A DNA stretch of 64,000 bases from Blastocatellia bacterium (GCA_038211695.1 JBBQVH010000010.1:2825-66824); one strand, 5' to 3'. Positions 24,645 through 35,186 are shown, numbered from the stretch's first letter. Notes: generated by a model from the sequence alone, not told the origin. Numbers and translations: made by a program.

Positions 24645-26135
24645 ATGGAAGTTAAAGCGGATGCAAGGAAGTTTTACGAGATCGAATGCGACGCGCTGGT
24701 CGTTGGCGTGTACGAAGGCGAAGGCCACAAAGAAGGCACCTTGGCCGAACTGGATAAGCGCATTGGTGGCGTGCTGGCTTCGCTGGTGGAAAATGGAGAG
24801 TTCACCGGCAAGGCGGGCGAATCGGCTTACATTCACAACACCGGCGAGATGAAGGCGCGACGGCTGCTGCTGCTGGGCGCGGGCAAACAGGCCGATTTCA
24901 CCGCCGACAATGTCCGCCGGATGGCAGGCACGGCAACGCGCACATTGCGTAGCAAGAAGCTGCGCAGCTTCGCTTTCCTGCGCCGTTCCCAATTGGCTAT
25001 CGGCGAAAGTGCGCAGGCCGCCACCGAAGGCGCGCTGCTATCACTGTTCGACCCTGACAAATATCACACCAGCGACAAGACAGAGAATCATCTGGAAGCC
25101 ATGATCTTGGCAGCATCAAGTCTGGACGGGGAGGGTGACATCGAAGAGTTAAAGCGTGGCGTTGAACGTGGCCGCATTATCGCCGAAGCCACGAACTTCG
25201 GGCGCGAGATTGTTAATGAACCGTCCAACGTCATGACGCCAACCGCCCTGGCACAGAAGGCCGAAGAGCTGGCCAAGGATTACGGACTGGAACTGGACGT
25301 GCTGGACGAAGCGCAAATGAAAGAGCTTGGGATGGGTTCGCTGCTCGGCGTGGCGCAAGGTTCCGCGGAACCGGCCAAGATGATCGTGCTGCGCTACACG
25401 CCGAAAGTTGATTCCGACGAAACCATCGCCATCGTCGGCAAAGGCGTGACCTTCGACACAGGCGGCATTTCGATCAAACCCGCCGACGGGATGGAGAAAA
25501 TGAAGTACGACATGGCGGGCGGCGCAACGACCCTTTCCGCCATGCGCGCCATCGCGCAGCTCAAGCCCACGGTCAACGTCCTGGGTATCGTCCCAGCGGT
25601 CGAAAACATGCCCGGCGGACGTGCGCAACGCCCGGGCGATGTAGTTCGCGCGATGACCGGCAAAACCATCGAAGTCATCAACACCGACGCCGAAGGCCGG
25701 TTGATTCTGGCCGACGCAGTGGCCTATGCACGACAGCTTGGCGCGACCAAAATCGTTGATCTGGCAACGCTGACCGGCGCGGTTTCGATTGCGTTGGGTG
25801 ACGTATACGTCGCGATTCTGGGCAACAATCAGGATTGGATAAACGAAGTGATCGCGGCGGGCAAAAAGTCCGGCGAGAAGCTTTGGCAACTGCCTTTGGA
25901 CAAAGAGTACCGCGAACAAATCAAGAGCGAGATCGCCGACATCAAAAACGTCGGCGGGCGCAAAGCCGGCACCATCACCGGCGCGTACTTCATCCGCGAA
26001 TTCGTCGAAGACACACCGTGGGCGCATCTGGACATTGCAGGTACAGCCTGGAACGACAGCAACAAACCGTATTTGTCGGTCGGCCCCACGGGCGTTTGCG
26101 TGCGGACGCTGGTCAATCTGGTGTGTCGTGACTGA
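24645..26135 (+). CDS. pepA: Leucyl aminopeptidase (M17)
   Basis: NTDAEGRLILADA signature, VGKGVTFDTGGISIKP, MKYDMAGGA. Confidence 0.9.
   Translation: MEVKADARKFYEIECDALVVGVYEGEGHKEGTLAELDKRIGGVLASLVENGEFTGKAGESAYIHNTGEMKARRLLLLGAGKQADFTADNVRRMAGTATRTLRSKKLRSFAFLRRSQLAIGESAQAATEGALLSLFDPDKYHTSDKTENHLEAMILAASSLDGEGDIEELKRGVERGRIIAEATNFGREIVNEPSNVMTPTALAQKAEELAKDYGLELDVLDEAQMKELGMGSLLGVAQGSAEPAKMIVLRYTPKVDSDETIAIVGKGVTFDTGGISIKPADGMEKMKYDMAGGATTLSAMRAIAQLKPTVNVLGIVPAVENMPGGRAQRPGDVVRAMTGKTIEVINTDAEGRLILADAVAYARQLGATKIVDLATLTGAVSIALGDVYVAILGNNQDWINEVIAAGKKSGEKLWQLPLDKEYREQIKSEIADIKNVGGRKAGTITGAYFIREFVEDTPWAHLDIAGTAWNDSNKPYLSVGPTGVCVRTLVNLVCRD
26093..26135. repeat. Left copy of an imperfect direct repeat (the pepA 3' end) bounding the island
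   Basis: ggcgtttgcgtgcGGACGCTGGTCAATCTGGTgtgtcgtgactga encodes GVCVRTLVNLVCRD*. A 19-nt identical core recurs at 31056-31074. Confidence 0.7.
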
Positions 26136-26162: not shown

Positions 26163-26648
26163 ATGTCGGTAATGGACATTTACAGCAAGGAAAAAAGAAG
26201 TCAGATAATGTCCGCAGTCCGTTCTTCGGGAACGAAGCCGGAACTCATCGTCAGAAAGGCATTACATTCTCTAGGATTCCGCTTTCGCCTTCATAGCAAG
26301 GCGCTTCCCGGGAAACCGAATATTGTTCTGCCTAAACATAAAGCAGTTGTTTTCGTCCATGGATGTTTTTGGCATCACCACAAGGGATGTGGGAAGTCCA
26401 AGCTTCCCACATCGAATGCCGAATTTTGGCAGACGAAAATATTCGAGAATGTTCGGCGAGATAAGAAAACCATATCGCATCTCAGGAGACTTGGCTGGCG
26501 GGTTTTAATTGTTTGGGAATGTGAAACCAAAGGCGGCATATTCATCAAAAAGCTATACCGTTTCTTCAAGCTGACATGCCCATCGCCCGCTGCAATGTCA
26601 GTCATCAGCCGGGGAAATAAGAGGTCACGCAATGTCGCAACAAGCTAG
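26163..26648 (+). CDS. vsr: Very-short-patch repair endonuclease Vsr
   Basis: RSQIMSAVRSSGTKPELIVRKALHSLGFRFRLH...GKPNIVLPKHKAVVFVHGCFWHHH...LGWRVLIVWECE lines up with canonical Vsr along its whole length. Confidence 0.85.
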   Translation: MSVMDIYSKEKRSQIMSAVRSSGTKPELIVRKALHSLGFRFRLHSKALPGKPNIVLPKHKAVVFVHGCFWHHHKGCGKSKLPTSNAEFWQTKIFENVRRDKKTISHLRRLGWRVLIVWECETKGGIFIKKLYRFFKLTCPSPAAMSVISRGNKRSRNVATS

Positions 26649-28812
26649 GCAATCAAGCGAATCGGAGAAAATCCCGTTCCGCATGCACCCGAGAGTATTC
26701 GAGTCACTGGGTGCGGACTTAGTTACAAGTGACGCTGTGGCAATCATTGAGTTGGTGAAGAACTCTTACGATGCCCACGCAACGAGAGTGGACGTGCGCT
26801 TGAAGAAGAGTACCGAAGATAACGAGTTAATATTGGAGATTGAAGATAACGGCTCCGGTATGAACCATGAGGTAATTGAAAATGCCTGGGCAGTCGTCGC
26901 CACTCCCTACCGCGTCAAGCAAACCAACAGCAAGCAAGGACGAAAAGGGCGGAGAGCTTCCGGCGAAAAAGGGCTTGGAAGGCTATCCGCAGCGCGTTTG
27001 GGCAACAACTTGGAGATGTTTACCAAGCCCGCGAATGAAGATTGTTGGCAAGTAAAAGTTGATTGGGGCATTCTGGCGGCCTCGGATGATTTGAGTTCCT
27101 GCGAAATCCAACTTCAAAAATACAATGGCAATCCTCTTGCCGGGCGCACCGGCACGCTGATACGAATTTGTGAGTTAAAGAGTAATTGGGATGACGAAAA
27201 GATCGCTGAGCTTAAGGATTTGCTATCTAGATTGATTCCCCCCTTTGCTCGGGTTGAAGACTTTAAGATTTGGCTGACTCTTCCAGGTGAAAAAGAGGCA
27301 GAGTCTGAAGAAATTGAACCAGCAAAGTTTCTTTCCAAGCCGCCATACCTGCTGAAAGGGAGTGTAGATAAGTCAGGCAGAGCCAACTGCACCTACACTT
27401 ATGCTCCGCTACAAGGAGCGAGTCGCACGGTTGAGATTGTCCGTGAATTATGGGCTAGCAATTTCGTTGCGGCGGACAACGATCAAGACGACGGTCAAGA
27501 AGTGAACCAAGTGCCCGAGTGTGGGCCATTCAAGTTTGAGATAAGAGTTTGGGATCTCGATAAAGACGCTGAGACGTTTAAGGAAATCTCGCAAGAATTC
27601 AATTTGAATCTTGCGATGCTACGCAGAACCATAAAAAACTATCAGGGACTGTCACTCTATCGCGATGAAATACTGGTTTTGCCAAAATCGGAATCGGCAA
27701 GGGACTGGTTGGGACTTGATCTGCGCCGTGTGAGCAAAACCGGCAAGAGGGTAGGCACCAGTCAACTCATTGGCTACTTGGCAGCTACAGCCGAAAACAA
27801 TCCGAGTCTCAAAGATACAAGTGATCGCGAAAGGCTGGTTGATAATCAGGCCGCTAGGGATTTCAAAAAGCTCTTGTGGGAAATTGCCGGGCTATTGGAG
27901 AACGAGAGAGAGAAGGATCGGCTGGAAATTCGTAAACAGCGATCTTTGAAGGATTTGTTTACTGCACTTTCAACCAAGCCTCTCATTGAGCGGATGTCGG
28001 CTGCCGTGGCACAGGGAGTCGAAGCTAAAAAACTGCTCCCGCTGGTGGAAGAACATGGTGTTGAGGTTGAAAAAGCTATCGGTGAAATTGAGCAAACACT
28101 TATTTATTACAATCAACTCGCCAATCTTGGTGCTTTAGCAGCGGTGTTAGTGCATGAGGTCGGAAATAGGGTAGGCATTATAGGACGATTAACGCGGCGG
28201 ATTCGTAAGCTCATTGAAAGGAAAGATGCTTCCGCTTTGACAGTCGAAGAAGATTTGGGGCGTGCTGAACAGAGCGAGCGTGCCCTTAATCGGTTAGTTG
28301 ACCATCTCGCTCCCCTTGCAAGCCGCACGTTTCGTACCCGGCGACGTGACTCCAACCTCGAAGAGACAATTCTGAATTGCGTGGGAATGCGTGAAGAAGA
28401 GATCAAAGCTAAAAAAATCACCGTCGAGTATAAATCCGATTTGCCTTATGTTGTGGCGATTGACCCGGGCGAGCTTGACGGTATCATCCTCAACTTGCTC
28501 GACAATGCTATTCATTGGCTTTCAACTGTCAAAGATCGCCCGCGCCGCATAGAGTTTCGAGCCTTGCCAAGTAACAAAACATTGCGGGTTAAGATTGAGG
28601 TGCATGACTCTGGCCCTGGCGTAGATAAAGATGATGGAGAACGGATTTTTTTACCAGGAGTCTCCCGTAAGACAGGGGGGCTTGGCATGGGGCTTTTCGT
28701 TGTTGGAGAACTGGTAGCACAGCACAATGGAGCGTTTCATTTGATTACCACGCCGGCACTAGGTGGGGCAAGCTTTGGCTTCGATCTGCCACTTTCCGAG
28801 AGGGCAAAATGA
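26632..28812 (+). CDS. Fusion protein: N-terminal MutL/MORC/HSP90-type GHKL ATPase (HATPase_c_3-like), a central unknown region, and a C-terminal histidine-kinase core (H-box plus HATPase_c)
   Basis: N-terminus: AIIELVKNSYDAHA (N-box), IEDNGSGM (G1), GEKGLGRLS (G2). C-terminus: VLVHEVGNRVGII (H-box-like), ILNLLDNAIHWL (N), VHDSGPGVDKD (G1), GGLGMGLFVVGELV (G2). It overlaps the vsr stop and the next gene start. Confidence 0.7.
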   Translation: MSQQARQSSESEKIPFRMHPRVFESLGADLVTSDAVAIIELVKNSYDAHATRVDVRLKKSTEDNELILEIEDNGSGMNHEVIENAWAVVATPYRVKQTNSKQGRKGRRASGEKGLGRLSAARLGNNLEMFTKPANEDCWQVKVDWGILAASDDLSSCEIQLQKYNGNPLAGRTGTLIRICELKSNWDDEKIAELKDLLSRLIPPFARVEDFKIWLTLPGEKEAESEEIEPAKFLSKPPYLLKGSVDKSGRANCTYTYAPLQGASRTVEIVRELWASNFVAADNDQDDGQEVNQVPECGPFKFEIRVWDLDKDAETFKEISQEFNLNLAMLRRTIKNYQGLSLYRDEILVLPKSESARDWLGLDLRRVSKTGKRVGTSQLIGYLAATAENNPSLKDTSDRERLVDNQAARDFKKLLWEIAGLLENEREKDRLEIRKQRSLKDLFTALSTKPLIERMSAAVAQGVEAKKLLPLVEEHGVEVEKAIGEIEQTLIYYNQLANLGALAAVLVHEVGNRVGIIGRLTRRIRKLIERKDASALTVEEDLGRAEQSERALNRLVDHLAPLASRTFRTRRRDSNLEETILNCVGMREEEIKAKKITVEYKSDLPYVVAIDPGELDGIILNLLDNAIHWLSTVKDRPRRIEFRALPSNKTLRVKIEVHDSGPGVDKDDGERIFLPGVSRKTGGLGMGLFVVGELVAQHNGAFHLITTPALGGASFGFDLPLSERAK

Positions 28813-29963
28813 GTGAAAAAGGTGATGACAAAGTTTGGGTACTGATTGTTGAGGATACGCGTGATAGAGCAGTTACTCTTCGGCAAGAAATCATTGAAAG
28901 GTTGGGGAATGACGTTGAGATTGTCATCGAAGAAGATCACGAGAAAGCCTCGCAGGTCTTACTTCGCCCGCATCCTTACGATGTTGTGATCCTTGACTTG
29001 TTTCGCGGCAATCCGACAAACGGGGATAAGGCGGGCCAAGTTCTTTGGCAGGAAATATTGAATGTAAAGTTCGTCCCCGTGCTTGTTCATACTGCTGGTG
29101 CTTGTGACCTTGAACCGCCTTTTCCCGAAAAACACCCGATTCTTCGCTGCTTCCCGAAAACTTCCGATAGTGATGTGAAGATAGCTGAACACCTGTTGTC
29201 AATTCGCAAGTACGTTATGGAGTTAAGAGAAGTGCAGCAGGAGATCAATGCTGCATTCAAAAGCGTTCTCCTGGTCACGTCGGCAACCATCTGGAAAGAG
29301 GAAGCTGATGAGGAACAGCGTGCTCAATTGCTTCTACGAAGCGCGCGAAGACGAATGGCGGCGACAATGGATTCTGCCACTCAGGTCAGTCAGGAAAAGC
29401 TTCTGTTTTGGGAGCAGTATATTTACCCGCCTATGGAGCCAAGCTTATTGATGGGAGATTTGCTGCGCGCCAAAGACAAAGACAAGCATGATCCGACAGC
29501 TTACCGGCTTGTCTTGACGCCTTCTTGCGATTTGGCTTCCGGAGTCGGCCGCCGCACTATCTGCGACGTTTTAGTAGCAAAGTGTCAGAGTAGAGAGGCT
29601 TATGTGAAGGCGGTTGGCGTGACGATCGGAGATTCGATGACTGACAAAAATAAGGAGCGACTGGCAAGGTCGTTCAACGATGCGCATTACGGCAGCCATG
29701 TCTTTTTGCCGGAGTACAAGTCTGTCCTTCCAACGATGGCCGCTTGCTTGCGTGACTTGGAATTGATTCCGATCAACGAGATTGCATCACAAGATGAATC
29801 GAATGGAAAGTTCACCAGAGTTGTTTCGATTGATAGTCCCTTCCGAGAACAAATAGCGTGGGCTTATCTTCAAATTGCCGCAAGACCGGGAATGCCCGAA
29901 CGTGATTCGGAGCGATGCATTCAAGATAATTTTGCGCCGTCAGAGCCATCCGTAATCTCATAA
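28809..29963 (+). CDS. Receiver (REC)-like domain protein with an unrecognised C-terminal domain of about 270 aa (candidate effector)
   Basis: N-terminus VLIVEDTRD...YDVVILDLF(Asp)...VPVLVHTAG fits the CheY-like receiver layout. The C-terminal two-thirds has no motif I recognise. ATGA overlap with the upstream kinase-like gene. Confidence 0.6.
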   Translation: MSEKGDDKVWVLIVEDTRDRAVTLRQEIIERLGNDVEIVIEEDHEKASQVLLRPHPYDVVILDLFRGNPTNGDKAGQVLWQEILNVKFVPVLVHTAGACDLEPPFPEKHPILRCFPKTSDSDVKIAEHLLSIRKYVMELREVQQEINAAFKSVLLVTSATIWKEEADEEQRAQLLLRSARRRMAATMDSATQVSQEKLLFWEQYIYPPMEPSLLMGDLLRAKDKDKHDPTAYRLVLTPSCDLASGVGRRTICDVLVAKCQSREAYVKAVGVTIGDSMTDKNKERLARSFNDAHYGSHVFLPEYKSVLPTMAACLRDLELIPINEIASQDESNGKFTRVVSIDSPFREQIAWAYLQIAARPGMPERDSERCIQDNFAPSEPSVIS

Positions 29964-29983: not shown

Positions 29984-31040
29984 ATGATTGCGATTGATTT
30001 CTTTTGCGGGGCTGATGGGCCAACCCGAGGGTTGCTGAACGCCGGAATTGAAGTCCGATTTGGAATTGATTATGACGCAGTATGCCGTGAGACTTACGAG
30101 ACAAACAATCAGCCTGCACACTTCCTTAAAGCGGATGTGAAAACGCTTGAAGTCGCGGATATTCGAAGAGAGATTGGTGAGATTGATTCTGACAATTTGT
30201 TACTCGCCGCGTGCGCTCCATGCCAACCTTTCTCACAACTCAACCGTGGAGGAATCAATGATGATGAGGCGACATTGCTCGGGCGGTTCGGGCGATTTGT
30301 TCAAGACTTGCAACCCCGCTACGTGTTTGCGGAGAACGTTCCGGGCCTCAGCCGTGTTCCCGGCCAGAGCACGCATAAGAGATTCCATCGCATGCTGAAA
30401 AAACTCGAATACGGTGTCTGGGAGGGCGTGCTTGATGCGAAGTCGTATGGTGTCCCGCAAACCCGCCGCCGATTCATCATGATTGCGATTCGCGGAATTG
30501 AGCCGACCGCTCCGCCACACACACACGGGCGGGGAGCGGGTTTACTTCCTTTTGAAACGGTGGGGAATGCAATCAGAGATCAGCGTCACTATCCGCCAAT
30601 CCAAGCCGGAGAAACGCATCCGGCAGTCCCTAATCACAGGGCAGCCATTCTCTCCGCCGTTAACCTCGAGCGAATTCGTCATATCTCCTTGCAATGGAGG
30701 GGAACGAACTGCTTGGCCTCAGCACCTATGGCTGAAATGCTATTCGAACGGGCATACCGGCCACACTGACATCTATGGCCGAATGAAATGGGAAGCACCC
30801 TCGCCGACGCTTACTTGCAAATGCATCAGTCTTTCTAATGGCAGGTATGGTCATCCCGAGCAAGATCGTGCCATTTCATTACGCGAAGCTGCGAAACTGC
30901 AAAGTTTCGATGACGATTATGTCTTCCAGGCCGACGGACTTATGCAAGCGGCAAAACAGATCGGGAATGCCGTACCAGTAAAATTTGCCGAAGCGATTGG
31001 GTTGCATATTCGAAGGCTTGCCGGAGAACTCAGCCATTAG
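29984..31040 (+). pseudogene. dcm: Dcm-type DNA (cytosine-5) methyltransferase, interrupted by a single frameshift near 30680-30690
   Basis: Frame 1 carries motifs I (FCGADG), IV (PCQPFS), VI (ENV) and VIII (QTRRRF), and runs to ...NLERIRHIS. Frame 2 continues SPCNGG...YGRMKWEAPSPT...EAAKLQSFDDDYVF...GNAVPV (motifs IX/X). The ORF track shows two overlapping ORFs, 29984..30769 and 30483..31040. Confidence 0.75.
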
Positions 31041-31098: not shown

Positions 31099-31665
31099 TC
31101 ACGGTTCCAAATTCAGCCGCCGATCGTCATACAACCGTATGTGGTCGGCGGCTTGCCATTGGGCCAATTGGACGATCTGGCCAGTGTGATAGCTGAAGTG
31201 CTCAACCACATGAAAAACCGCGTCGAACACCGTTTGAGCGTAACCTTGCGGCACGCATTCACGTTGCATGGGCGCGTCAGATTGTGCGGCTGCCAATTCA
31301 TCCTCCAATCCCGCCAACACGGCATCTACTTCATCCAGCGTTCTCGTCAGCAAGATAATCAACTCGTCTTTGCCAATCCCTTCGCGTGCGGCGAATTCGC
31401 TGGCGCGTTGGCGCGTGTCCGCCGCGCCGCCGATGCCGGCAATGATCCACTGGCGCACGTTGCCCACCAGATGCAGAATCAGATTGCCGATGCTGTTGCT
31501 GGCCTCGTTTGGGTGCCACCAAACTTGTTCGTCGTCTAATTCAGCCAGCGCGGCGCTGATCTTGATGAAATAATCTTCGCGCAATCGGAAGCGCGCCTGC
31601 CGCAGAAAGGCAAGTCCGGCAGGCAGTGGCGCGGCAGGTGGTTCAAGTAAAAATGATCTTTTCAT
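31099..31665 (-). CDS. DinB/YfiT-like (DUF1572) family protein
   Basis: EDYF...L..LDDEQVWWHPNEASNSIGNLILHLVGN...HVVEHFSYHTGQI matches the DinB_2 four-helix-bundle pattern. The N-terminus overlaps the tail of the adjacent transposase ORF, so the start is uncertain. Confidence 0.6.
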   Translation of the reverse strand: MKRSFLLEPPAAPLPAGLAFLRQARFRLREDYFIKISAALAELDDEQVWWHPNEASNSIGNLILHLVGNVRQWIIAGIGGAADTRQRASEFAAREGIGKDELIILLTRTLDEVDAVLAGLEDELAAAQSDAPMQRECVPQGYAQTVFDAVFHVVEHFSYHTGQIVQLAQWQAADHIRLYDDRRLNLEP

Positions 31666-32579
31666 TCGGCAATATCTCCTTCCTTAAACTCTCGAATGCT
31701 GATTCGCAAACCTTCTTTCTGAGCGGGATCGGACGTCTTACCCTGTTACGGGCAAAATGCCAACAGCCAAGAGTGCCTTGCCTCGTAAGTGCGAACAGAG
31801 TTTCAATGCCCCATCTTTCCTTGTATTCCCGGTGCGGCTCCGGCGAGTGTTCCGCCGAAACCGGAATCAGGTACTCGCCCGATCCGAGGTAACAACCGCT
31901 TAGATACAGTTCCATCCCCCACATCTGACGCGCTTCGGGCAGGACTAACATCTGATTGACTCTGGTTGAGGTGAATAATCGCCAGGCGTGAACCAGCTTC
32001 CCGCGACTGTTGCAAACCGGCGTATCCTTCTTCAAGCGCATCCGGAATTTGATCCGATGCTGACGCAGAAAACGGAACCATCGTTTGCCGACAAACTCGC
32101 GATCGCCCAATAAACATTGGATATTTTGCGCGCCGAAGAGGTCAATGAAAATCTCGATCAGCGTCTCTCGCTCGATCGTGTCGGAGTTGCCGGTCTTGGG
32201 CAGCGGCAACCAAACGACTGGAAACCCGATCCCGCGATAAACGATTGAGAGCATCAAAATGTTGACGTCAACGGCACCGACTTTCCAGGCGCGTCCGATC
32301 CAGCGCCAGCGTGTAGGGGCCTTCGTCGCCGAGCAGTTTGACGACAAAGTGGGACAGTTCGGCATAAGGCAATTCGAAGTTGTGGAGGAACCGTTGGAGC
32401 CGTTTGTAGTTCGACTCTTCTTTGGCGTTGCCGGAAAAGGCCGTCGCGAGAATCGAGAGGTTGACGGTCCGGACCGCGTAAAGCGCCAACAGAAAGCGCG
32501 TCACAAATTTGATGCGAGCTTTGTTCCAAGGTAAATTCTCAAGCAACGTTTGCTCAAGTGAGCGAATGTCGAGTGCCAT
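31643..32579 (-). mobile_element. IS4/IS5-superfamily DDE transposase gene, split by a frameshift (ORFs 32268..32579 and 31643..32365). The IS ends were not identified.
   Basis: N-terminal ORF LLENLPWNKARIKFVTRFLLALYAVRTVNLSILATAF...YKRLQRFL; C-terminal ORF with DREF...KERWGIETLFALTRQ (DDE_Tnp_1-like). The two overlap by about 100 nt in different frames. Confidence 0.6.
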
Positions 32580-32798
32580 CGTGCGATCTCCTTTCAGTTT
32601 TGGTGGACCGAAAGTTTAATCGTGCGATGGCCTTAGCCGTCAAGCCCACAAGTCAGACTCATTTTTTGTCCTGTAGAGAAGTGTCAGGCACTACGTTTTC
32701 AACTACTTTCCCAACCACGCCTGGGGCGTACAAAACCGTTGGCGGAAGAAAAAGCACGGTCATCCCAGAAGATGAAAACCCGGATTGCTTTGTTACTA

Positions 32799-33919
32799 AC
32801 TGATGTTACGCAGTGGCCAATTGTGACTTCAACTTGACAAGCTCGGCGTAGGCGGATTTTACCGCCGACAGATAGAGCTTGGATTTCAAGGCGAAGTGGT
32901 TGAGCTTGGTCTTTATTTTGAGCTTCTCCAGTTTGATATAAGCGCACAAACTGGCAAATAGATGATTGCGTTGACTCGTCTCGGTGCGCGTCGGCGACTT
33001 CTCCGGCGAGGCATTCTGCTTGAGCGATTTGTGGTAGACCTCGATGCCCCATCGTTTTTGAAAGAGCTTCGCGATACGGTCAGCGTTGAGCGTCAAGTCG
33101 CTCGTCACCAGGTAGCGCACGCCCACCGAGCCGTCTTCGTTTTTGAAGATCTGCTTGAGCAAGAGGACTGCAAAAGGCACGCCCTCGAGCCAAACCTGGC
33201 GGGTTGTGTCTGCTGGCAAATCGAGTGTACTGACTGCCACGTAGGGACCGCGTTGATTGTCGGTTTCGCCCAAGGCCACCTTGCGGTTCTCCTTGAGCGG
33301 CATGATGAAGTCTTTCTTGAGATCGAGTTTGATGAACTTCATATTGTCGGCGGACGCATACCAGAGGTCATTGAGCACGTATTGGAAGAGCACCTGATTA
33401 TGCACCGCCACGCGCAGCAACATCCGGTAACGCTGGTTTTTGGTGATCGGAGAGCGACGCGCGGGTTTTGCCGGTCTTGGCGTCAACATATTCTTCTGTC
33501 TTCTCGACCGGATCGAAGGCAATCGGCAAAGACACTTCGCCGACGTTATAGAAAGCCGTCAAGAACTCGATTCCTTTGACGTGCCTGCTCAGAGAATGGC
33601 TCCAGTGCCAGCAGATAATGTCATTCTGGTCGGTGTAGAGCTTCTTGCTCAGAGAGTCATCAATGCTGATGACCCCGTCCGGACGTTCGATCTGACGGAC
33701 AAGCGGTTTGCTGACGCGCCACAAATCGGCACTGGTCTTGGGAGCATCGGCAAGCAGGCGGGTCACCTGATCGTGGCTGACCTGACCGTCAAGCATCCGC
33801 GCCATCCCGGTTGCAGTCGCTGGCCCGAAGCTGCTGATCAAGAAGTCAGTGTAGAGGTCGAACAGTTCATCATTCATCTGTCAAGTTTACTCTTGGCAGC
33901 CCGACTGCGTAACATCAGG
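32799..33919 (-). mobile_element. Insertion sequence (about 1.12 kb, IS5/IS4-superfamily) with 15-bp perfect terminal inverted repeats. The transposase is split by a frameshift (33398..33877 and 32806..33522).
   Basis: IR-L aaCTGATGTTACGCAGTgg (32799-32817) against IR-R ccgACTGCGTAACATCAGg (33901-33919). C-terminal ORF contains FQKRWGIEVYHKSLKQ (a DDE transposase signature). The two ORFs overlap out of frame. Confidence 0.7.
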
Positions 33920-34892: not shown

Positions 34893-35186
34893 CTACCCTC
34901 TCCGAAAAGCCGCGACGATGCGGCTGGCCTCGTCCCGTGATGGCGGCGACAGGCGTTTGACCGCCTTTTGATATTGCTCGCGCCGTTGTTGTTTGAGTCC
35001 GGTCGCTTGCGTGATCAGGCGATTGATCCACTCCTGAACCTCGCTAAAGGAAAAGGCGACTTTCCTTTTCCCGATGCGGATGCGGGTGAATTCATCCGTC
35101 CCGGCTTTGCCCGCCAGAATGGTCTTGACCGCCAGCCCGGTCATTTCCGCGACCTGCTGCGCGTTGATCAGTTTTTCCGTCTTCAT
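34893..35186 (-). CDS. Helix-turn-helix DNA-binding protein (excisionase/AlpA/MerR-like)
   Basis: LINAQQVAEMTGLAVKTILAGKAGT...RIGKRKVAFSFSEVQEWI is the typical short HTH excisionase-type layout. Confidence 0.55.
   Translation of the reverse strand: MKTEKLINAQQVAEMTGLAVKTILAGKAGTDEFTRIRIGKRKVAFSFSEVQEWINRLITQATGLKQQRREQYQKAVKRLSPPSRDEASRIVAAFRRG

Follow-up and report, generated by a model that had tools for sequence, protein, structure and literature searches.

A 64,000-nucleotide stretch of DNA from a Blastocatellia bacterium (GCA_038211695.1, JBBQVH010000010.1:2825-66824; hereafter the window, with positions counted from its first letter) carries a cassette of four tightly packed genes, all on the + strand and in the order vsr, sensor kinase, response regulator and dcm. 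Our subject is the third of these, a response regulator of 384 amino acids (28809..29963, + strand, ATG to stop) that combines a receiver (REC) domain, a helical hairpin and a C-terminal domain predicted to adopt the fold of the MazF and CcdB toxins. An earlier note, made from the sequence alone, had placed an open reading frame (ORF) at exactly these coordinates and on this strand, and the three peptides it quoted are all present in the translation. The ATG of the regulator overlaps the stop codon of the kinase gene (ATGA).

On comparative grounds this ORF is clearly a genuine gene, far beyond chance, because 431 full-length homologues are found at E<=1e-3, because the C-terminal domain alone retrieves 1,079 clusters at 50% identity in an exhaustive hidden Markov model search (599 of them at E<=1e-10), and because an alignment of 62 family sequences contains 22 invariant positions, among them C240, D241, D342 and E347. 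In the best 150 of the 1,079 clusters the domain starts at about residue 94-144 in every protein of at least about 340 aa, which leaves space for a receiver before it; some 14 shorter entries in this set are fragment-like. As a single sequence the regulator has no match in Pfam, NCBIfam or PADLOC, and Response_reg is not reached at E<=0.1. Many homologues (P0003, P0011, P0013, P0014 and others) carry the label 'CTP synthase' in JGI annotation; this name is without support in the domain analysis and looks like a propagated mis-annotation.

The receiver domain spans aa 1-118 (28809..29162, + strand) and is delimited by profile matches, invariant residues and the beta/alpha pattern of an AlphaFold2 (AF2) model. 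A profile of the 62-member family matches solved receiver domains (YycF, ArlR, PhoP and others) over residues ~5-100 with E values of 1e-9 to 1e-7, and 40 of the 62 members match PF00072 individually. Both D16, which forms an acidic pair with E15, and the phospho-acceptor D63 (codon 28995-28997) are invariant, K117 is conserved in at least 90% of members and T95 is present, while the modelled receiver shows regular beta/alpha alternation at a predicted local distance difference test score (pLDDT) above 90. The N-terminus, which had been described only as receiver-like, is a genuine REC domain and can probably be phosphorylated.

The same note could name no family for the C-terminal domain and, at the level of sequence, this holds for the final ~266 aa in Pfam, NCBIfam, PADLOC and a PDB profile search. 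In that last search the C-terminal-domain profile retrieved no MazF from PDB sequences; its only matches, at E~0.7, were chance ones in which the PSCD segment aligned with bunyavirus glycoproteins. The suggested remote-homology search, with Foldseek on a predicted structure, did identify a MazF/Kid/CcdB toxin fold and gave no housekeeping DNA-binding output. With the family alignment, AF2 modelled the full-length regulator at pLDDT 91.4 and a predicted template modelling score (pTM) of 0.81, and residues 119-384 alone at pLDDT 87.1. The modelled C-terminal part begins with a pair of long helices; a domain that is mainly beta (~213-358) comes next and closes with a helix (343-357). The two helices (aa 121-164 and 168-187; 29169..29369, + strand), recognised from AF2 secondary structure and conservation, link the receiver to the barrel; they contain an RRR motif (R180-R182, of which R181 is invariant) and an invariant D188, and we infer that this hairpin is a dimerisation or autoinhibitory element.

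In the predicted structure the domain that follows (aa ~213-358; 29445..29882, + strand) is a MazF/CcdB/PemK-fold barrel with a helical insertion of ~35 aa (aa 262-289). All of the top 50 Foldseek matches in the PDB are MazF/CcdB chains (best E 3.6e-4), nearly all with a probability of 1.0 and with per-target TM-scores of 0.57-0.75, and among viral models (BFVD) PemK-like proteins and an endoribonuclease account for five of the six best matches, the sixth being unnamed. Both the barrel and the C-terminal helix that define the MazF/PemK/Kid/CcdB fold are present in the model. By DSSP, the elements run b1 (218-221), b2 (232-235), a1 (239-242), b3 (253-261), the insertion (262-289), b4 (297-300), b5/6 (310-321), b7 (335-341) and the C-terminal helix (343-357). 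The resulting order, b1-b2-a1-b3-[insert]-b4-b5/6-b7-aC, is what we take to be the topology of MazF, with element equivalences that we assigned on this assumption. A winged-helix output domain was ruled out by the AF2 model together with the fold search, and neither Pfam nor Foldseek gave a signature or fold match to PD-(D/E)xK, HNH, GIY-YIG or PLD nucleases in the regulator. Within the barrel, two segments resemble each other, GDLLR...YRLVLTPSCD (aa 216-242, 29454-29534) and RDLELI...TRVVSIDSPF (aa 314-347, 29748-29849), and may constitute an internal pseudo-repeat.

Conservation within the C-terminal domain is concentrated in a few motifs. Those that mark the barrel are G216-D217, P238-S-C240-D241 (29520-29531) and D342-SPFRE347 (29832-29849), and R359-x-G-x-P363 (29883-29897) lies just past its end. 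In the close family the conserved stretches comprise RRR (180-182), D188, WEQY (201-204), G216-D217, YR233LVLTPSC240D241, VLVAKC259, S340-x-D342-SPFRE347, W351 and R359-P-G-x-P363. A tblastn search added distant relatives from further replicons, plasmids among them: Bacillus sp. H8-1, Acaryochloris pREB1, ~51-kb conjugative plasmids of Campylobacter, Fusobacterium and Enterobacter mori. In these relatives only G216, D217, P238, C240, D241, S340, R359, G361 and P363 are kept; D342 and E347 are lost, and P-x-C-D takes the form P-A-C-D in the Fusobacterium and Enterobacter relatives. Of the conserved Cys, Asp and His positions that had been thought to hint at catalysis, the cysteine and aspartates are borne out by the invariant C240, D241 and D342, but no histidine is conserved.

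The gene immediately upstream encodes a soluble sensor histidine kinase of 726 aa (26632..28812, + strand), identified by its HATPase_c_3, H-box and HATPase_c matches. A MutL/paraMORC-like GHKL module (aa ~15-450) is followed by a DHp H-box (H508-E509) and a HATPase_c domain; in Pfam, HATPase_c_3 matches aa 35-164 at 7.3e-18 and HATPase_c matches aa 611-722 at 1.9e-24. The GHKL (Bergerat) ATP-binding domain itself, located by Pfam and by conservation (26734..27123, + strand), has the N-box ELVKNSYDA and the G1 box DNGSGM. The N-terminal similarities are to restriction enzymes of the BbrUII/HgiDII kind (NCBIfam, 2.5e-21) and to MutL/PMS2 (5e-4), and the only PADLOC models that the kinase matches are those of Type II restriction endonucleases. 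The most conserved stretch of the sensor, according to its conservation profile and an alignment with the Ambrosia kinase AbrB, is aa 296-402 (27517..27837, + strand), where the motifs CGPF..., YRD..LPKSE.ARDWLGLDLRR and NP...DTSDRE, also common to AbrB, mark what is presumably the S5/transducer or a DNA-contacting part. All catalytic boxes of the transmitter are conserved: H508, E509, N621, N625, D659xGxG and G683xGxG are each kept in at least 95% of 75 kinase sequences.

The first gene of the cassette, vsr (26163..26648, + strand), overlaps the kinase start by 17 nt and encodes a very-short-patch repair endonuclease of 161 aa (PF03852, E 1.9e-33; TIGR00632, 8.5e-45). The last, dcm (29984..31040, + strand), starts 21 nt 3' of the regulator and belongs to the Dcm-type C5 cytosine DNA methyltransferases; PF00145 matches both of its halves, and in the window it is a pseudogene. 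Its reading frame is broken near 30680-30686 by a one-base frameshift, which leaves the ORFs 29984..30769 and 30483..31040; the shift is evident from a two-frame tblastn alignment to an intact homologue (L002) and falls in a non-homopolymer context (catatctcc). In addition, its S-adenosylmethionine (AdoMet) motif I (29999-30016) reads FCGADG instead of FxGxGG, and GxGG is kept in 72 of 72 related methylases.

The wider neighbourhood supports the view that the cassette lies within a mobile island undergoing decay. The GC content falls from ~0.55 in the flanks to 0.487 between 26 and 30 kb, and the cassette adjoins pepA (24645-26135). Downstream there are two DDE transposases, each represented by two overlapping ORFs (31643-32365/32268-32579 and 32806-33522/33398-33877), and a gene for an AlpA-like excisionase lies near them (region 31643-33877 and 34893-35186). 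No ORF for an HNH or XRE protein occurs inside the vsr-kinase-regulator-dcm unit, nor among the flanking ORFs that were scanned.

In this family the pairing of kinase and regulator is obligate. We sampled 80 loci from one-genome-per-species collections, and these cover more than ten phyla, including Acidobacteriota, Planctomycetota, Chloroflexota, Nitrospirota, Desulfobacterota and Rhodothermales, with Verrucomicrobiota, Spirochaetota, Elusimicrobia, Bacteroidota and others besides. Under a strict distance rule the kinase lies directly upstream of the regulator in 77 of the 80; the other three are two truncations at contig ends and one overlap. This adjacency, the ATGA overlap and the conserved H-box are the genomic evidence for a putative phosphorylation of the regulator by its kinase. 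Of the 80 loci, 75 have a neighbouring Dcm-type C5 methylase, downstream in 62 and upstream in 13. Where it is downstream, about 25-110 nt separate the start of its match from the end of that to the regulator; Vsr is adjacent to the pair in 47. Kinase, Dcm and Vsr are the only conserved neighbours of the regulator, and no Hpt/buffer protein or antitoxin gene is found among them. In some related loci a match is split across frames (the kinase in L032 and L039, the methylase in L044), and these splits are either pseudogenes or indels of long-read assembly, which bears on how the frameshift in the window should be read.

The same layout recurs on replicons of Bacillus, Acaryochloris, Campylobacter and Fusobacterium. 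Clinically sampled conjugative plasmids of Campylobacter jejuni/coli, ~51-55 kb in size (L082, H4-H57), carry the kinase, a 331-aa regulator with TPSCD, and dcm; among the records listed, about 15 have the kinase match in 2-3 pieces and as several annotated features, which suggests frameshifted copies. An Enterobacter plasmid has the kinase-regulator pair, with no methylase listed nearby in an incomplete gene table. On plasmid p1 of Burkholderia sp. IDO3 (L086, 3607-8776), a kinase of the same family is accompanied by an N6-type methylase, a 228-aa regulator without the MazF-fold domain, an MBL-fold hydrolase and a DEAD/DEAH helicase, which points to effector swapping on a common chassis. The pattern is one in which methylase, paraMORC-kinase and receiver form a conserved chassis and the effectors are interchangeable, the effector position here being taken by a fused MazF-fold domain.

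Our essential proposal, held with moderate confidence and dependent on the modelled fold, is that the regulator is the output of a four-gene, horizontally mobile cassette that unites the logic of restriction-modification with a His-Asp phosphorelay and in which phosphorylation switches on a MazF-fold toxin domain, making this a methylation-linked two-component defence system. A toxic effector under phosphotransfer appears the best reading because of the predicted toxin fold, the pairing with a kinase in a mobile, methylase-linked cassette, and the homology of that kinase to one from a validated defence system. The suggestion of the earlier note that the C-terminal domain is a toxic or abortive-infection effector is therefore sustained in kind, by the predicted fold, the defence context and the apparent phospho-control, but not in its Detocs-like form.

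In proposing how such a system might operate, we begin with the GHKL module, which, to judge from MutL, MORC and those restriction enzymes that contain GHKL, would monitor DNA, the simplest signal being invading DNA that lacks the methylation of the cassette and another being DNA structures associated with infection. Dcm methylation would probably mark self, and Vsr would repair the T:G mismatches that arise when 5-methylcytosine is deaminated. Activation of the sensor would lead to autophosphorylation at H508 and transfer of the phosphoryl group to D63. Since MazF and CcdB are active as dimers and have their functional surface at the dimer interface or close to it, dimerisation of phosphorylated receivers would be a simple way of forming an active toxin. 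The hairpin, which carries the invariant R181 and D188, may instead be a built-in inhibitor, from which phosphorylation would release the MazF-fold domain. Once active, that domain would arrest the cell or the phage, by growth arrest or abortive infection, with RNA cleavage as its likeliest action and CcdB-like poisoning of a protein target as the alternative. Where the sister systems have a short regulator and, after it, a separate hydrolase (HNH in Ambrosia, MBL-fold on the Burkholderia plasmid), the effector here would be built into the regulator. The fullest version of this proposal, a single-chain, phospho-gated toxin driven by a MutL-like kinase that reads DNA methylation, causing growth arrest or RNA-targeting abortive infection and perhaps employing a new Cys-Asp chemistry on a MazF scaffold, we put forward only tentatively. 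In it the toxin would be held inactive in monomeric form or by its hairpin, and a discrimination of self from non-self in the manner of restriction-modification would lead to arrest or abortive infection in place of DNA cleavage.

Several observations weigh against the proposal of a phosphorylation-switched toxin. The assignment to MazF is made at the fold level, on a predicted structure, since sequence methods miss the relationship: Pfam PemK and CcdB do not match the regulator even at E<=5, and hhalign, comparing the barrel region with two MazF alignments, returned probabilities of 0.1-0.2%, which are not significant. (The first alignment comprised E. coli MazF, verified against the PDB, and database homologues; the second also included MazF from B. 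subtilis and from S. aureus, together with Kid and ChpBK.) The best local match with the second alignment, which paired the MazF N-terminus with LRDLELIP...RVVSIDSPF and not with the GDLLR...TPSCD segment, was likewise not significant. The residues that are universally conserved in the domain (the nine from G216 to P363 given above) have, to our knowledge, no described role in MazF or CcdB. R233, at the position of the MazF catalytic Arg by our topology-guided alignment, is conserved in at least 90% of the close family; in the relatives from Bacillus, Acaryochloris, Campylobacter, Fusobacterium and Enterobacter the position holds W, F, K or Y. Nor is a Thr/Ser after b3, the other half of the MazF dyad, conserved across the close family and the distant relatives. 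The domain as modelled is thus MazF-shaped but is probably no textbook MazF RNase. An equation of GDLLR...YRLVLTPSCD with the MazF motif GDLIWV...HRPAVVLSP, with R233 as the catalytic Arg, was considered and dropped, given that the distant relatives are without that Arg.

The genomic context adds difficulties of its own. There is no room for an antitoxin gene beside the regulator, with the kinase overlap on one side and dcm 21 nt away on the other. In the window an intact kinase and regulator, with all family-invariant residues, stand beside a dead methylase, and in one Thermodesulfobacteriota locus (L010, 5762-9128) an orphan pair lies between purH and an outer-membrane efflux gene, with no methylase or Vsr within ~5 kb. 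A simple model in which unmethylated DNA triggers death would predict autoimmunity at both loci, and the two cases consequently speak against loss of methylation being lethal in itself, unless the local copy is silenced or decaying; with its methylase inactivated, the copy in the window may indeed be decaying. For Ambrosia, moreover, methylation by AbrA did not protect phage, and its authors favour transcriptional control (10.1101/2025.09.30.679545).

We have weighed four other explanations. The C-terminal domain could act as the restriction subunit, cleaving DNA, in a restriction-modification (R-M) system that is Type II-like and ATP-dependent; unmethylated sites would be recognised by the kinase/GHKL protein and the DNA cut by the phosphorylated regulator. 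The pair occupies the place of the R gene in a V-R-M cassette, the kinase N-terminus matches BbrUII/HgiDII enzymes and PADLOC models of Type II restriction endonucleases, the cassette contains no nuclease candidate besides Vsr, the invariant acidic residues D217, D241, D342 and E347 could bind metal, and the sister systems employ DNA nucleases (HNH, MBL). Yet D342 and E347 are lost in distant relatives, the nuclease signatures and folds sought above were not found, an intact R subunit beside a dead methylase would be lethal, and we know of no DNA endonuclease of the MazF/CcdB fold that has been described; on balance we think this unlikely. Poisoning without catalysis is another option, in which the C-terminal domain would be a CcdB-like binding module and its phosphorylated form would trap a host or phage protein such as gyrase. 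The majority of fold matches, and the best of them, are nevertheless MazF RNases, and that Cys-Asp, Ser and Arg are so strictly conserved suggests chemistry and not a binding surface only, so that we regard this as improbable.

A different kind of alternative denies the regulator an effector function altogether and has it control the methylase and Vsr, or unlinked genes, in keeping with what has been proposed for HEF_HK/Response_reg_2 proteins and for AbrC. Response regulators are mostly transcription factors, a two-component-like pair has been suggested as a regulator of R-M (Bellieny-Rabelo et al. 2021, PMC8011034), and Ambrosia shows infection-induced expression with proposed transcriptional control by AbrC (10.1101/2025.09.30.679545); we still judge a purely regulatory role to be quite unlikely. 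Finally, whatever the function of the family, the copy in the window could be a non-functional remnant of a decaying island. This is a real possibility, though short of probable: the dcm frameshift, the G-to-D change unique to its AdoMet motif, the two split transposases downstream and the deviant GC content all favour it, against which kinase and regulator are full-length and retain every family-invariant residue, and the frameshifts could be assembly errors.

Should phosphorylation indeed switch on the toxin fold, the consequences would extend beyond this locus. It has been recognised since 2021 that R-M loci can contain kinase-regulator pairs, and Ambrosia, a relative of these, was reported as an anti-phage system in 2025; the output had been assumed to be transcriptional. 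The family in the window suggests other wiring, in which a methylation-linked DNA sensor drives a toxin directly through phosphorylation. This would give MazF-fold toxins a new mode of regulation, in which covalent activation replaces the antitoxin, and R-M-like immunity a new type of output, in a family spread over ~1,000 clusters in many phyla and on plasmids of Campylobacter, Bacillus and Enterobacter. The conserved P-x-C-D offers a precise mutational target. In the literature searched we found no description of the P-x-C-D signature or of a MazF-fold assignment for the output domain, and the kinase-regulator pair is not described in the eLife 2020 paper on conflict systems or in Iyer et al. 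2008.

The closest characterised system is Ambrosia, a five-gene system of Pseudomonas that consists of the XRE protein AbrR, the N6 methylase AbrA, the HATPase kinase AbrB, the receiver protein AbrC and the HNH protein AbrD (bioRxiv 10.1101/2025.09.30.679545). It protects against phages, every gene is needed, and the D60A change in AbrC abolishes protection; its expression is induced by infection, and control of transcription by AbrC is what the authors propose. The kinase in the window (aa 15-404) aligns by BLASTP with the first 399 aa of AbrB (Table S1 sequence) at 28% identity and E 4e-39, and the two have the motifs CGP, YRD, DWLGL-RR and NP-D-T/S-RE in common. Both cassettes bring together a DNA methylase, a soluble kinase with N-terminal HATPase_c_3 and C-terminal HATPase_c domains, and a receiver protein. 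They differ in that Ambrosia has an N6-adenine methylase, an XRE protein and a separate HNH effector, whereas the window has a C5 methylase and Vsr, no XRE or HNH gene, and a 384-aa regulator with a MazF-fold domain; AbrC, at 209 aa, comprises a receiver and helices without a barrel, and has no detectable similarity to our regulator.

A second point of comparison is the set of histidine kinase-like and response regulator-like pairs described in Proteobacteria and Bacteroidetes by Bellieny-Rabelo et al. (2021, PMC8011034), which are linked to C5 methylases and Vsr. Their domains were named HEF_HK (PF19191) and Response_reg_2 (PF19192) and a regulatory link to R-M was suggested; the C-terminal part of the regulator-like protein was not analysed there, and an effector role was not proposed. 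The resemblance is plain, as in both cases a kinase with HATPase_c_3, DHp and HATPase_c stands beside a receiver-like protein in which no further domain is known, and C5 methylases and Vsr occur in the vicinity. However, regulators of the window family match ordinary Response_reg instead, and PF19191 and PF19192 gave no match in the window proteins, the 62 family members, five plasmid relatives or the top 120 distant-profile matches, a weak negative in that the presence of these models in our Pfam copy is unconfirmed. On the Enterobacter mori plasmid the regulator, an enterobacterial-type protein, is clearly homologous in its C-terminal domain to that in the window (hhalign 99.6%, E 5.8e-25), and for this reason we regard our regulator, from sequence relationships, as a divergent branch of the HEF_HK/Response_reg_2 superfamily.

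The likeness to established toxins is one of predicted shape. There is no detectable sequence similarity to the type II toxins MazF/PemK/Kid and CcdB or to the type III toxins ToxN/CptN, and the domain in the window departs from MazF and CcdB in being fused to a receiver and helical hairpin and not paired with an antitoxin gene, in its ~35-aa insertion, and in its conserved residues, which are P-x-C-D, S340 and R-x-G-x-P in place of an Arg/Thr dyad that is not family-wide. With Detocs (the kinase DtcA, the buffer DtcB and the receiver-nucleosidase effector DtcC) the cassette would have in common the concept of a phosphorelay and of a regulator in which a cell-arresting effector domain replaces DNA binding. 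It nevertheless differs in its GHKL/paraMORC sensor, its effector fold, the want of a PNP-type nucleosidase, and its linkage to a methylase and Vsr. Membership of Detocs was rejected: no PADLOC Detocs model matched, and the cassette has no third phosphorelay (buffer/Hpt) protein. It is on these counts, with a sensor of MutL/paraMORC type and no PNP effector, that the Detocs-like module envisaged in the earlier note falls away.

Lastly, there is an affinity with R-M systems and with the GHKL ATPases that accompany them. Compared with a classical Type II R-M system, the cassette has the methylase family (as a pseudogene in the window) and no recognised endonuclease domain, and its kinase resembles BbrUII/HgiDII only in the GHKL part. 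The paraMORC families are known from R-M contexts (Iyer et al. 2008, PMC2292703), and the GHKL-nuclease fusion paraMORC3/VcSduA is a validated defence protein (PMC12137116). With paraMORC, Shedu, BbrUII and HgiDII proteins our cassette shares an N-terminal MutL-like GHKL ATPase as a putative DNA-directed sensor or engine and a neighbourhood of Dcm and Vsr. In paraMORC and BbrUII/HgiDII proteins, however, the effector (a nuclease of restriction-endonuclease fold, TIR or others) is fused to the GHKL module itself, while in the cassette described here a histidine-kinase transmitter takes the place of that effector, and the putative effector is carried on a separate, phospho-accepting protein.

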